Source: an uncultured bacterium
Lineage (GTDB): Bacteria; Desulfobacterota_D; UBA1144; Nemesobacterales; UBA2774
Length of the DNA stretch: 64,000 nt
Assembly (NCBI GenBank): GCA_963825135.1
Contig: CAWGRW010000009.1
Span: 1,632,001 to 1,696,000, forward strand
Reading direction: 5' to 3'
Shown: positions 12,394 to 40,873 of the stretch, piece after piece
How the letters are laid out: every line of letters begins with the position of its first letter
Numbering within the stretch: the stretch's first letter is position 1
Made by a program: the position numbers and the translations under genes
Notes under the pieces: generated by a model
What the model was told of the DNA's origin: nothing
Databases searched by the model: none
What the model saw: only the letters and a program-made list of their open reading frames with translations

Positions 12394-12466
12394 GCCCGGA
12401 TAGCTCAGTCGGTAGAGCAGAGGACTGAAAATCCTCGTGTCGGCGGTTCAATTCCGTCTCCGGGCA
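12394..12466 (+). tRNA. tRNA-Phe: tRNA-Phe (GAA), CCA not encoded
   Basis: Full cloverleaf: GCCCGGA/TCCGGGC acceptor stem, GCTC/GAGC D arm, GAGGA-CTGAAAA-TCCTC anticodon arm, GGCGG-TTCAATT-CCGTC T arm. Confidence 0.98.
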
Positions 12467-12613
12467 TTCACTTGCACCATTTATTACCTAGCCAGCTCGT
12501 GGAGCTCCGCCGTTTCTAATCTTATCCGAAATCCCGGGGTTTTGGCCGGCATTTGATCTTCTTTCATTACCCAACGTGTCCTCTTGTGAATATACGGTTA
12601 ATTTTCCATATTG

Positions 12614-12655
12614 TTGCAAAAATTCGATAGATATTTTTGTTGGACTATATATAAT
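12614..12655 (+). promoter_or_regulatory. Putative activator box overlapping a sigma70 promoter (copy A)
   Basis: TTGCAAAAATTCGATAGATA-16 nt-TATAAT. The same motif with the same spacing occurs at 25769. Confidence 0.55.
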
Positions 12656-12668
12656 AGAATGACTTTAT

Positions 12669-12728
12669 ATTATTATCTTCCTTCTCGATGATGTCGGCTG
12701 GATGGACCCTGGATTCATCGATGGAGGG
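12669..12728 (+). pseudogene. Relic of an AslA-like arylsulfatase N-terminus
   Basis: Translates IIIFLLDDVGWMDPGFIDGG. In-frame stop just upstream and no continuation. Confidence 0.7.
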
Positions 12729-12858
12729 AGTGGCTCTCAATGTCGTAGTGTCGGGTATAACGATCAAACTAGAATCTGCGATACCTGATTCAGAATAAAA
12801 ATTTTATTACTGACGAGGAACGTATCATCTTTAACTAAATCAAGGGGGGTAAGTTAAA

Positions 12859-37009: not shown

Positions 37010-37185
37010 GCTTTCATATAAGGCGGGCGGGTCATTTTGTCCCGCCCGTAACTACGCCTATCCCGGAGTAAAGAGCATGTATATCATTGGGGGTATGCGG
37101 CCTTATCTGGAAAAACAGTCGGATACCGTTTGCCGGCCGTGCCGGTGGGGGTAATGCCGTAAAGACAATAAAGGACAGTAAACGT

Positions 37186-38229
37186 ATGAAAGCGACGTCG
37201 ACACGGATAACGCATATTCTGTTCGTACACCTCGTGATTGGTATTCCTGGCGATGGCTGTGCTCCCGGGCGCCCGGGCCGATGCCCGGACCGATCCCCTC
37301 CAGTCCTGGAACGACGGGCCCGCTAAGGAGAGCATCGTAAGGTTCGTCGCGGAGGTTACGAAGGAGGGGGGGCCGAATTATGTCCCGCCTGAGGACCGGA
37401 TCGCCACGTTCGATCAGGACGGCACCACGTGGGTATCCCATCCCCTTTATGCGCAGGCTGTGTTCGCGCTCGACCGGATACGCGAGCTCGCCCCGAAGCA
37501 CCCGGAATGGAAGAGACGAGGAACCGTTCAAGATCGGTCATCGCGGGAGACCGGGAGGCTATGGCGAAGTTCGGGGAGTCTGACTGGGAGATGATTATTG
37601 CCGCGACACACACCGGTATGAGCACTCAGGATTTCCTCGAGATCGCAAACAAGTGGCTGTCCGCCGCTAAGGACCCACGCTGGCACAGGCCGTACACAGA
37701 GCTTGTCTATCAGCCCATGATCGAGGTCATGGATTATTTGCGGGCAAATGGATTTAAGACTTACATCGTCACCGGAGGGGGGCAGGAGTTCGTGAGGGCG
37801 TACAGCAACGGCGTCTACGGAATACCCCCGGAACAGGTCGTGGGTTCGAGCGTCCTGACGAAATACGAATACAAAGACGGCAAGCCCGTGCTGTTACGCG
37901 AGCCCAAGGTGTTTTTCATCGACAATAACGGAGGAAAGGCGATAGGCATTAACCTCTTCATCGGCAAGCGCCCGTACGCCGCGTTCGGCAACTCGACCGG
38001 CGACCGCGAGATGCTCGAGTGGACACAGGCGGGCGGCGGGGCGCGCTTGATGATGCTCGTCTATCACGACGACGCTCTGCGTGAGTACGCATACGGACCG
38101 GCCGGGGGTCTGCCCGATACGAACGTCGGCACATTCTCTCAGGCGCTCATGGACGAGGCCGGGAAAAACGGGTGGGTCATCATCAGCATGAAACATGACT
38201 GGAAACGCGTCTTTAAATTCGAGGAATAG
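37186..38229 (+). CDS. Secreted HAD-superfamily hydrolase (acid phosphatase-like) with three +1 shifts
   Basis: PLQSWNDG, motif I FDQDGTTW, IVTGGG and AFGNSTGD. Shifts at ~37230, ~37514 and ~37533. Confidence 0.8.
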
Positions 38230-38285
38230 CCGGCCCGAGCTGAATAATCGCGAAATGCTGCATGTGTTAAGCTTTGTATAGAGAA

Positions 38286-40622
38286 ATGAATCTCAGACGC
38301 GTCGTCTATTTTATAATTGCCGCACTCATAGTACTCGCCCTCGGATATTTCTACCGCAAGTCCGGTCCATTAAAATCACACAAGACGGTCAACTCCGTAA
38401 GCCCAATCGACAATACCCAGGGGTTCGTCGGGAGCCGTGTATGCGCGGAGTGCCACAAGGCCGAGTACCAACTCTGGCTCGGCTCTCACCACGACCTCGC
38501 TATGCGGGAGGCAGCGGCGGATACCGTGCTCGGCGACTTCGACGGGGCGGTTTTCTCGTATGAAGATGTTGAGTCCGAGTTCTATAAGAAAGACAAAAAG
38601 TATATCGTACGCACTGACGGCCCGGACGGGAAGCTCCATGACTACGAAATCAAATATACATTCGGCGTCTATCCGCTCCAGCAATACCTTGTCGAGTTTC
38701 CCGGCGGCAGGCTGCAGGCTCTGAGCATAGCATGGGACAGCCGATCAAAAAGCGAAGGCGGTCAGCGCTGGTTTCATCTCTACCCGAATGAAAAAATAAC
38801 GCATGACGATTCCCTCCACTGGACCGGTATCGACCAGAACTGGAACCATATGTGCGCCGAATGCCATTCGACGAATCTTAAGAAGAATTACGATTTAACA
38901 ACCGGTACCTATAAGACGGCGTGGTCCGAGATAAACGTTTCGTGTGAGGCGTGCCATGGCCCGGGATCCGGGCACGTCAAATGGGCGGGGCATAAGAACG
39001 GCGACAAATTTCCGGATATGGGACTCCTCGTGAGTTTCGATGAGAGGAAAGGGGTCGGCTGGACGATAGATAGGGAAACGGGGAACGCGGTGAGGAGCAG
39101 GGCGCCCTCGAACGATCGGGAGATAACCGTCTGCGCCAGATGTCATTCGAGAAGGAGCGCAATATCGGACAATTACTCATACGGAAAGAGTCTGCTCGAT
39201 ACGCACATCCCGGCGCTTCTCGAAGAAGGCGTCTATTATCCCGACGGACAGATCGAAGCAGAAGATTACGAATGGGGCTCGTTCATCCAGAGCAAGATGT
39301 ATCACAAGGGAGTAACGTGCAGCGACTGCCATGACCCGCATAGCCTCCAATTGCGGAAGCCCGGTAACGCCGTGTGCTCTCAATGTCATGAACCGTCGAA
39401 ATATGATTCTGCCTCACATCACCATCATGAAACGGGCTCGGCTGGCTCCGGGTGCGCCGTATGCCACATGTCTGTAACCACTTACATGATAATAGACGAC
39501 CGTCACGACCACAGCATCCGCATTCCGAGGCCCGATCTCACCGTCAAAACAGGCGCGCCCAACGCCTGCAATAAGTGTCACTCGGACCGTACGCCGGAAT
39601 GGGCGGAATCGGTGATAAAGAGTTGGGGCGGCGAAAACAAGAAGGGCTTTCAGAATTATGGGGAAACGCTTTACGAAGCGCGTAACGGCATGCCCGGCGC
39701 GGAAGAGATGCTCGTCGAGCTTGCGAATGATGCCGGTGCTCCGTCCATAGCGAGGGCAACGGCTCTAAACGATCTCGCGGGCTATCTCAGTCCGTTCTCC
39801 GTCGAGACCGTCCGGAAGGGACTCGGCAGCGATGACCCTCTGATCAGGGGGGCGGCTCTCGACGCCCTTGAACCGGCTCCGCCCGACACAAAGACCGGGC
39901 TCGCTTTTGGACTGCTTAACGATCCCGTACTCGCCGTCAGGGTGAAGGCGGTGACAATACTTGCCTCCTCGCCTCGGGAGAACATGACCTCGGAACAAAG
40001 AAAGGCGCTTGACGATGCCGTCAATGAGTACGTGAGGGCGCAGATGACGAACGCAGACCGGCCCGAGGCTCACATCAACATAGGGCTGATTTATACGGAG
40101 CTGGGAAGGCTGCCCGAAGCCGAGGTTCAGTATGAGACGGCTATGAGACTCGAACCTTCATTTATCCCAGCGTTCGTAAACCTTGCCGATCTCTACAGGA
40201 TGGAAGGCAGGGATGCCGATGGGGAGACCCTCCTCAGGAGCGCTCTTGAAATTTCCCCTGAGAGCGGAGACGTGTACCACGCGCTGGGATTGCTTCTAGT
40301 CAGACAAAATAAGATCCCGGAGGCGATGAACGCATTGGAGGAATCGGTAAAGCTAAGCCCCGACAACACCCGATACAGCTTTGTATATGCCGTGGCGCTC
40401 AATGATATAGGCAAAAAATCCGAGTCTATTCGTGTGCTGGAGGAAGCCCATGAGCGGCGTCCCGCGGACCGGGAGGTCTTATTCGCGCTTGTAAATTTCA
40501 ACCGCGAGAACGGAGACATCCGGTCTGCCCGGCGGTATGCGGAGATGCTAAAGGAGGTCTCGCCGCACGACCCGGACGCCGACCATCTTCTCGATGAACT
40601 TGGAAGGGACCTCGGCCGATAA
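38286..40622 (+). CDS. Membrane-anchored octaheme cytochrome c with HEAT-like and TPR repeats
   Basis: N-terminal TM segment; eight CxxCH motifs (CAECH x2, CEACH, CARCH, CSDCH, CSQCH, CAVCH, CNKCH); C-terminal TPRs. Confidence 0.9.
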   Translation: MNLRRVVYFIIAALIVLALGYFYRKSGPLKSHKTVNSVSPIDNTQGFVGSRVCAECHKAEYQLWLGSHHDLAMREAAADTVLGDFDGAVFSYEDVESEFYKKDKKYIVRTDGPDGKLHDYEIKYTFGVYPLQQYLVEFPGGRLQALSIAWDSRSKSEGGQRWFHLYPNEKITHDDSLHWTGIDQNWNHMCAECHSTNLKKNYDLTTGTYKTAWSEINVSCEACHGPGSGHVKWAGHKNGDKFPDMGLLVSFDERKGVGWTIDRETGNAVRSRAPSNDREITVCARCHSRRSAISDNYSYGKSLLDTHIPALLEEGVYYPDGQIEAEDYEWGSFIQSKMYHKGVTCSDCHDPHSLQLRKPGNAVCSQCHEPSKYDSASHHHHETGSAGSGCAVCHMSVTTYMIIDDRHDHSIRIPRPDLTVKTGAPNACNKCHSDRTPEWAESVIKSWGGENKKGFQNYGETLYEARNGMPGAEEMLVELANDAGAPSIARATALNDLAGYLSPFSVETVRKGLGSDDPLIRGAALDALEPAPPDTKTGLAFGLLNDPVLAVRVKAVTILASSPRENMTSEQRKALDDAVNEYVRAQMTNADRPEAHINIGLIYTELGRLPEAEVQYETAMRLEPSFIPAFVNLADLYRMEGRDADGETLLRSALEISPESGDVYHALGLLLVRQNKIPEAMNALEESVKLSPDNTRYSFVYAVALNDIGKKSESIRVLEEAHERRPADREVLFALVNFNRENGDIRSARRYAEMLKEVSPHDPDADHLLDELGRDLGR

Positions 40623-40825
40623 CAGGCATATCCGGCTATAGGCAATCTAGTCTGCTGAGGCTATGGATTGGTCTCAAAGCCGGAAAGAACGGACAGAATT
40701 TATCCCGCAAATTCCTATCCATATGGAGCAGATAGATAATCACATGATACGGATGGGCACTGTTTATTCGTGACTTGTTGTGATAATTGTAATTATGTCA
40801 GGAAGTTATGATGCTAACCTCACGA

Positions 40826-40873
40826 GCGCTGAAATTTTTGTGCAGGTGTCCGGGCTCTTCACTCCGGGAATTT
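40826..40873 (+). repeat. Degenerate att-like copy 4 (probable right end of the island)
   Basis: About 31/49 matches to copy 3 by eye (CTGAAA...GTG..GG.G..CGGG...CTCCGGG.ATT). Preceded by TCAGGAAGTTA at the same offset as in copy 1. Confidence 0.6.

Follow-up and report, generated by a model that had tools for sequence, protein, structure and literature searches.

Introduction

Arrays of partial tRNA genes that hold units without an integrase have already been described. In Alteromonas, additive islands, one of them at tRNA-Phe, consist of cassettes marked by a partial tRNA repeat (PMC4898812). Cis-mobilizable elements (CIMEs) and their tandem accretion, as in the ICESt1/ICESt3 family of Streptococcus thermophilus, have been defined (PMC5704250), and in the tycheposon islands of Prochlorococcus, elements are described as lying side by side with a partial tRNA between them, newcomers pushing older elements inward (bioRxiv 10.1101/2020.12.28.424599). 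Here we describe a structure of this known kind in a new lineage, an array of tRNA-Phe fragments in an uncultured bacterium (Desulfobacterota_D/UBA1144/Nemesobacterales/UBA2774). The analysed stretch of DNA, referred to as the window, comprises 64,000 nt of the forward strand (GCA_963825135.1, contig CAWGRW010000009.1, positions 1,632,001-1,696,000).

We propose, with a probability of roughly one half, that the 28.4 kb separating the tRNA-Phe gene from a conserved flank, made up of a helix-turn-helix (HTH) gene and pilMNOPQ, form an additive genomic island in which integrase-less, cis-mobilizable units accreted site-specifically. The region is identified as a hotspot of site-specific insertion at tRNA-Phe by a repeated block spanning the tRNA from the anticodon stem to the 3' end, by breaks of the variable region that fall exactly at the repeats, and by a discrete arm that several genomes have in common beside unrelated cargo.

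tRNA-Phe-derived repeats delimit the proposed island

The window contains a single tRNA gene, an intact tRNA-Phe(GAA) at 12393-12467 on the plus strand (ARAGORN; Rfam tRNA, 71.7 bits), which is the putative target of integration. BLASTN bears out the direct repeats of its 3' 48 bp that were reported in the initial annotation. This 3' part (12422-12469, core copy 0) recurs in direct orientation on the plus strand at 16725-16772 (core copy 1, 48/48 identical, wild-type T-loop), 19671-19717 (core copy 2, 42/47) and 22014-22061 (core copy 3, 44/48). The perfect match begins at base 3 of the anticodon stem and extends 2 nt beyond the tRNA end, and all copies share identity with the tRNA from the anticodon stem to 2-3 nt beyond its 3' end. 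This extent supports the earlier suggestion that the repeats have the anatomy of an attachment (att) site duplicated by a tyrosine integrase. In shuffled sequence, a 48-mer with at most three mismatches is expected 0.00 times (100 shuffles).

A degenerate copy had also been claimed at 40826. A leave-one-out profile trained solely on the three good copies, each taken together with the arm on its 5' side, recovered a decayed arm and core (core copy 4) at 40717-40872 on the plus strand (E 2.4e-4), the sole match below 0.01 besides the training copies and the tRNA, and on this basis we regard the fourth copy as real. Positional homology points the same way, as the copy stands 3' of a TPR/multihaem-cytochrome gene whose deleted version precedes the core at 16725. 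The profile revealed no further arm-plus-core copies elsewhere in the window. Start-to-start spacings of 4303, 2945 and 2344 bp, followed by 18.8 kb to the fourth copy, agree with the segment lengths of ~4.3, 2.9, 2.3 and 18.8 kb given initially.

The same site in related genomes

We searched 185,579 species genomes for the tRNA fragment, with the T-loop left free and a base included that excludes true tRNA-Phe genes. This search returned non-tRNA copies at four loci (L001-L004), the window's own genome not being among them. L002 and L004 are metagenome-assembled genomes (MAGs) labelled Candidatus Dadabacteria, whereas L001 and L003 are MAGs labelled Thermodesulfobacteriota, the phylum that contains the class Dadabacteria. 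At the four fragment sites themselves, ARAGORN gives no tRNA call. The arm, which the search pattern did not demand, is present in all four loci (nhmmer E 3e-35 to 5e-50). Arm and core together adjoin a different cargo in each of them, the arm being a discrete module shared by all, and three of the four abut the same HTH/pilM flank as the window.

L003 agrees with the window in gene order to the left of the site (MFS gene, porin and tRNA-Phe) and to its right (HTH, 254-aa and 129-aa open reading frames (ORFs) and pilMNOPQ). Synteny breaks exactly at the tRNA end (window 12469, L003 15333) and resumes ~95 bp past the distal core (window 40967, L003 9884), so that the same site holds 28.4 kb in the window and 5.1 kb with a single arm and core in L003. 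The cassette polymorphism expected of an array that gains and loses units is therefore seen at species level, with unrelated content in the two genomes. The L003 cargo comprises a UmuC C-terminal fragment and an AI-2E transporter together with BON, DUF3309 and DUF2141 proteins, and neither a sulfatase nor an integrase was found in this 5.1-kb unit. The UmuC fragment (L003 14926-15294, plus strand) spans ~120 residues from the C-terminus of a Y-family polymerase of the UmuC type (IMS_C, DUF4113) and ends 40 bp from the tRNA-Phe 3' end; lacking its N-terminal part, the gene is truncated, and it lies where the L003 island borders the tRNA. Between the MFS and porin genes, L003 also carries an ammonium transporter gene (17068-18561, minus strand) that has no counterpart there in the window.

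In L004 the order is cytochrome-TPR gene, arm, core and HTH flank, and in L002 it is exopolysaccharide (EPS) export genes, arm and core, with the HTH flank 1.8 kb further on and no tRNA within 10 kb upstream. The additional 1.8 kb between core and HTH in L002 (10053-11833), a more distant relative, holds two ORFs without known family, compared with ~100-200 bp in the other relatives. The right flank of L001 differs from that of the window.

All four relatives are known from MAGs, in two cases from short contigs ending near the site, and the multi-copy array occurs in the window alone. We therefore considered whether co-existing strain variants of a hypervariable locus had been chained during assembly through the arm-plus-core repeats. 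The exact repeats are short (at most 48 bp, and 26 + 17 bp between T-loop alleles) and the arms within the window are only 47-68% identical, which makes chained variants unlikely, and the flanks are collinear with L003. We therefore regard an assembly artefact as hardly credible.

A conserved arm beside each core

Each core copy is directly preceded by an A+T-rich arm of ~150 bp, which the true tRNA lacks. It begins with CAAAGAAT-AGy-CAAAGAAy, a direct repeat whose two members are 11 bp apart. This CAAAGAA-like pair is found at the start of all seven good arms and is exact in five, the first repeat having one or two changes in the arms of the 19671 and 22014 cores. Two arm types can be distinguished, both of which occur in more than one genome. 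Type A arms (the 16725 core, L003 and L004) are 81-92% identical to each other, and type B arms (the 19671 and 22014 cores, L002 and L001) 58-68%, whereas identity between the types is 42-54%. In the window, the type A arm occupies 16545-16724 and the two type B arms 19521-19670 and 21866-22013, all on the plus strand. At its outer end the 16545-16724 arm includes a 25-bp tandem duplication (16550-16574/16575-16599) that doubles the CAAAGAA pair, giving four CAAAGA(A) motifs instead of two.

The type A arms of the window and L003 align over their full length with 139/151 identical positions, compared with 68-89% identity in the coding flanks and 79-91% in the partly alignable intergenic DNA. 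They occupy non-equivalent positions, internal in the window and distal in L003, and the distal arm and core of the window are far more decayed. That the arm is better kept than its flanks suggests that it is constrained, or that it was shared more recently than the chromosome. Conceivably, the ~200 bp of arm and core act as a standard docking module under selection across Dadabacteria, through which an unlinked recombinase moves units down to a single gene into and out of one chromosomal site, much like an integron based on a tRNA att site, here assembling a sulfatase repertoire; the gene for such a recombinase might lie at another place in the genome or be brought by a transient helper. We hold this view tentatively and consider it possible but unlikely.

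Arm conservation of this degree is also what functional DNA of another sort would show, and the arm and core might be a regulatory or structural DNA or RNA module, such as a leader or an insulator upstream of the HTH operon, that was duplicated locally together with downstream genes. The module stands upstream of the same HTH gene in three of the four loci and at 40826, and a co-oriented ORF follows every copy. However, the genes downstream are unrelated (the third sulfatase is ~25% identical to the others), the identity block corresponds exactly to the tRNA 3' half, and the variable region has its limits at the cores. Nor does the arm behave as a structured RNA, having neither an Rfam family nor a stable fold; its sole match, to a snoRNA model at E 0.78, is a chance hit. 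No compensatory change was found in the fold of the arm alignment (0/18 pairs), and no single-stranded DNA (ssDNA) hairpin was detected in any of the seven copies (fold z-scores -0.8 to +1.3). We consider a regulatory module very improbable.

Conservation is restricted to one side of the core. BLASTN, a search for the CAAAGAA motif and local alignment against shuffled sequence revealed no conserved P' arm right of the cores, and in the local alignments the HTH promoter region of L003 and L004 was the sole aligning part. The right flank of the 22014 core was tried as an orthologue of the L003/L004 distal flank and is unsupported by the same alignments. In plasmid collections the tRNA part alone matches, to tRNA genes, and phage collections gave no match to the arm. 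A derivation of the arm from a decayed tRNA 5' half plus promoter was dropped at ~27% identity by eye.

Variation in the T-loop

All mismatches of the 19671 and 22014 cores lie within one 5-nt block in the T-loop, TCAAT being changed to CGGGG and CGGGT, respectively, while the remaining 43 positions are identical. CGGGT is also found in L003 and L004, the decayed copy at 40717-40872 has CGGGC, and the loops of L002 and L001 are wild-type-like, so the block is not linked to arm type. Confinement of the mismatches to a single block indicates a discrete allele common to relatives rather than graded decay. A polarised order of acquisition, which had been read from an apparent gradient of decay (42/48 and 44/48 away from the perfect tRNA-proximal copy), thus loses its basis.

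Gene content of the units

A sulfatase (Pfam PF00884) is encoded in every segment, the second and third segments having one gene each, exactly as initially described, and by eye the N-termini of the sulfatases are signal-peptide-like. This bias is specific to the window, since the cargo of the relatives is non-sulfatase. Cargo genes are co-oriented with one exception, and 144-390 bp with promoter-like matches precede the first gene of each unit.

Cassette 1 (12470-16544, plus strand) contains a sulfatase gene (12859-14580), an ORF for a SYLF-like lipoprotein (14718-15113) and a broken cytochrome gene (15535-16188 and 16187-16474). The latter is a pseudogene of the TPR/multihaem-cytochrome type that retains residues 4-216 and 683-778, having lost ~1.4 kb internally, with a change of frame at 16187. 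Cassette 2 (16773-19520, plus strand) holds a single sulfatase gene (16917-19379, 820 aa), as does cassette 3 (19718-21865, plus strand; 19941-21713, 590 aa). Close database relatives of the cassette 3 sulfatase are named N-acetylglucosamine-6-sulfatase. Its homologues were also considered as evidence of transfer (best 88% over 80% of the protein, next 68%) and are uninformative without genomic context.

Segment 4 (22062-40716, plus strand, 18.7 kb) begins with a DUF1254/DUF1214 protein, a 38-residue scrap of a sulfatase C-terminus (24521-24613) and an AraC regulator (24721-25632, minus strand). Its middle part comprises Cys-rich, DUF2092 and Q-rich ORFs, a sulfatase (28794-31367) and a frameshifted paralogue of it (31471-33960), and its right part a further sulfatase (35392-36745), a HAD hydrolase and an intact TPR/multihaem-cytochrome gene (38274-40622), followed by the decayed arm and core. 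The sulfatase at 31471-33960 is read in three frames and that at 35392-36745 in two, reflecting either pseudogenes or sequencing errors. Three 33-bp tandem repeats (28123-28244) encode a Gln-rich stretch in an ORF without family match (27923-28558). The initial annotation had viewed the units as minimal, non-autonomous, single-function cassettes. All are free of recombinase genes, but a single function does not hold for all of them, given the cytochrome pseudogene in cassette 1 and, in segment 4, the size (18.8 kb between cores), the frameshifted sulfatases and the sulfatase scrap.

The sulfatase of cassette 1 shares 48% protein identity with that at 35392. Given the same cytochrome gene, a related sulfatase and an arm with core, cassette 1 appears to be a diverged, shrunken counterpart of the segment 4 right end. 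This resemblance, the pseudogenes and scraps in both units, the heavy decay of the distal copy and the UmuC fragment adjoining the tRNA in L003 would all fit pure decay, in which the segments are stumps of autonomous, integrase-bearing tRNA-Phe islands whose mobility genes were deleted, and which are now immobile fossils. Degenerate elements with partial tRNAs are reported for tycheposon islands, yet those islands keep fragmented integrases (bioRxiv 10.1101/2020.12.28.424599), of which none were found in the four window units and the units of the four loci. Pure decay would also need four separate deletions, each beginning at a core yet sparing it, and the better preservation of the type A arm than of flanking genes, at non-orthologous positions, is unlike that of neutral fossils. 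We consider this explanation rather doubtful.

Search for a recombinase

In line with the initial annotation, domain scans of 114 of the 120 window ORFs of at least 100 aa gave no match to integrases, recombinases, transposases, relaxases or replication proteins. Of the six ORFs outside the domain scan, two are nested alternative starts and four are small and overlapping. Nor did such domains appear, at E values up to 1, among 82 stop-to-stop fragments of 35 aa or more from the intergenic DNA, and PHROGs and NCBIfam scans of the unannotated island ORFs gave nothing recombinase-like. No scrap of a conjugation, relaxase or integrase gene from a parental integrative and conjugative element (ICE) or integrative and mobilizable element (IME) was found in the units. 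For L001-L004 the Pfam scan covered part of the loci, and syntenic parts were judged by their match to scanned window genes.

The initial annotation had likened the array to an integron-like collector of sulfatases. In such a platform, a fixed recombinase elsewhere in the chromosome would capture and reshuffle single-gene cassettes via arm and core and thereby tune the sulfatase repertoire. Cassettes 2 and 3 with one gene each, the near-uniform orientation, the recombination site at the end of each unit and an arm module that is kept in five genomes with no recombinase in cis, apparently under constraint, are all compatible with it. Against this, no intI-like gene lies beside the array, the seven copies show neither an ssDNA hairpin nor covariation and hence no folded attC-like site, relatives carry other cargo than sulfatases, more than one good copy is found in the window alone, and units of 4.3 and 18.8 kb are not minimal. 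The comparison with an integron-like collector is therefore not upheld, and we regard such a platform as improbable.

A model for the growth of the island

We suggest that the island would be built by repeated site-specific recombination at the att core of tRNA-Phe. Each unit would close in an attR-type junction, consisting of the element-borne arm of ~150 bp followed by the 3' 48 bp of the tRNA, and the units are most likely cis-mobilizable cargo modules without a recombinase of their own. A hypothetical helper element with a tyrosine integrase, which is not in the window, may dock on the tRNA-proximal side, where it would contribute attL and the enzyme, and may leave again either alone or together with the unit next to it. 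It could thereby deposit or collect cargo that needs just a compatible right-hand arm and core. The one-sided conservation, with arm and core on the right of a unit and nothing on its left, fits cis-mobilization by a helper on the tRNA-proximal side. Some units would later have decayed in place, signs of which are the deleted cytochrome gene in cassette 1, the frameshifted sulfatases and the sulfatase scrap, as well as the UmuC fragment in L003.

Several observations weigh against this model. No integrase, even a fragmentary one, was seen in the window or in the scanned parts of L001-L004, so the recombinase is wholly hypothetical. A second fragment copy was absent from the examined DNA of L001-L004, making the multi-copy array a feature of the window alone. 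The perfect cores of these four loci are due to ascertainment, since the search pattern demanded a perfect match. Promoter-like sites within the cassettes show no excess (19 compared with 15.4 +/- 4.1 in shuffles). Finally, a crossover in the anticodon loop that brought in the shared T-loop block would render the tRNA inactive, and the simple model leaves the block unexplained. With a crossover at that position, the altered copies cannot have passed through a functional single-copy tRNA; either their junctions would have formed at sites within the array, or the crossover would lie further 3', or the copies would have been homogenised.

Flanking and neighbouring genes

The conserved right flank (40967-42635, plus strand), in which synteny with L002, L003 and L004 resumes, encodes an Xre-type HTH protein (41081-41494), a membrane protein of 254 aa with two TM segments and a protein of 129 aa with an FxLYD domain. 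This trio was examined as a hidden recombinase module and rejected, as no member is recombinase-like. A c-di-GMP-I riboswitch aptamer (42752-42837, plus strand; 75.1 bits, E 3e-13) lies ~260 bp 5' of pilM, and the pilMNOPQ operon is therefore probably controlled by c-di-GMP. Type IV pilus genes flank the island on both sides, with pilB, pilT, pilC, pilS and pilR on the left (1-6968) and pilM, pilN, pilO, pilP and pilQ on the right (43096-48055); there is no pilin gene after pilR. A second cluster of the alkaline-phosphatase superfamily (56971-63491, minus strand), made up of a sulfatase of 638 aa and two phosphodiesterase-like proteins that each exceed 700 aa, lies outside the array without bounding tRNA fragments, indicating that sulfatase-type genes are not limited to the island.

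Significance

Dadabacteria are uncultured and their gene exchange is little known, and the 200 bp of arm and core give a sequence-defined handle on it in five genomes. In the literature on Dadabacteria sulfatases and genomic islands and on tRNA-Phe sulfatase islands, judged from summary entries, we found no account of the array. Its notable features are an arm conserved on one side in five genomes and units, the smallest of a single gene, that lack a recombinase in cis. Should a helper integrase be matched to the arm, the gain and loss of single catabolic genes, such as sulfatases for sulfated glycans, would become trackable in natural populations; if there is no helper, a cassette system not yet described would be indicated by the one-sidedness of the arm and by units that consist of one gene.

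Comparison with known systems

In a lambda-type attR, the arrangement is POB', with the P arm beside the core. The arm described here resembles such a P arm in its length of ~150 bp, its A+T-richness and its place to one side of a short core, and it likewise has repeated motifs at the outer end. Unlike in lambda, no P' arm or integrase was found. An anticodon-loop class of tyrosine-integrase att sites in tRNAs was reportedly recognised by Williams in 2002, and the identity block of the cores has the extent typical of that class; no cognate integrase was found in the window or the examined loci. Like an integron, the locus is an ordered array of co-oriented genes that alternate with recombination sites, each site standing after its gene, and two of its units have a single gene. 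It differs from integrons in having no intI or attI and apparently no Pc, in that units have upstream regions of their own (144-390 bp), and in a site that appears to be a tRNA-derived, double-stranded att with an arm rather than a folded attC.

Compared with tycheposon islands (bioRxiv 10.1101/2020.12.28.424599), the hallmark module of recombinase and replication genes is absent here, even as fragments, and the lineage is another. Both are tRNA-adjacent, contain several partial tRNAs and carry cargo for nutrient acquisition, in both newcomers would displace older elements inward, and the proposed helper would match tycheposons in being rare and transient relative to the islands.

With the additive islands of Alteromonas (PMC4898812), the locus shares a tRNA hotspot, related genomes with different cassette sets, and adaptive, metabolic cargo. 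The same site holds different content, as in an additive island, with 28.4 kb in the window, 5.1 kb in L003 and other cargo in L002 and L004. Unlike in Alteromonas, no integrase was found in the 64 kb of the window or in the relatives' loci, a discrete conserved arm of ~150 bp stands at every junction, two units have a single gene, and the comparison is between species-level MAGs and not strains.

The units also differ from CIMEs (PMC5704250) in that no helper ICE or IME is present and the right-hand arm alone is conserved. Like CIMEs, they have att repeats at their borders, contain neither integration nor transfer genes and are stacked one after another behind a target gene whose 3' end supplies the directly repeated core, and mobilization is proposed to involve a helper that integrates alongside. 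The locus thus adds a new lineage to those known to have additive islands linked to tRNA genes and cis-mobilizable units.

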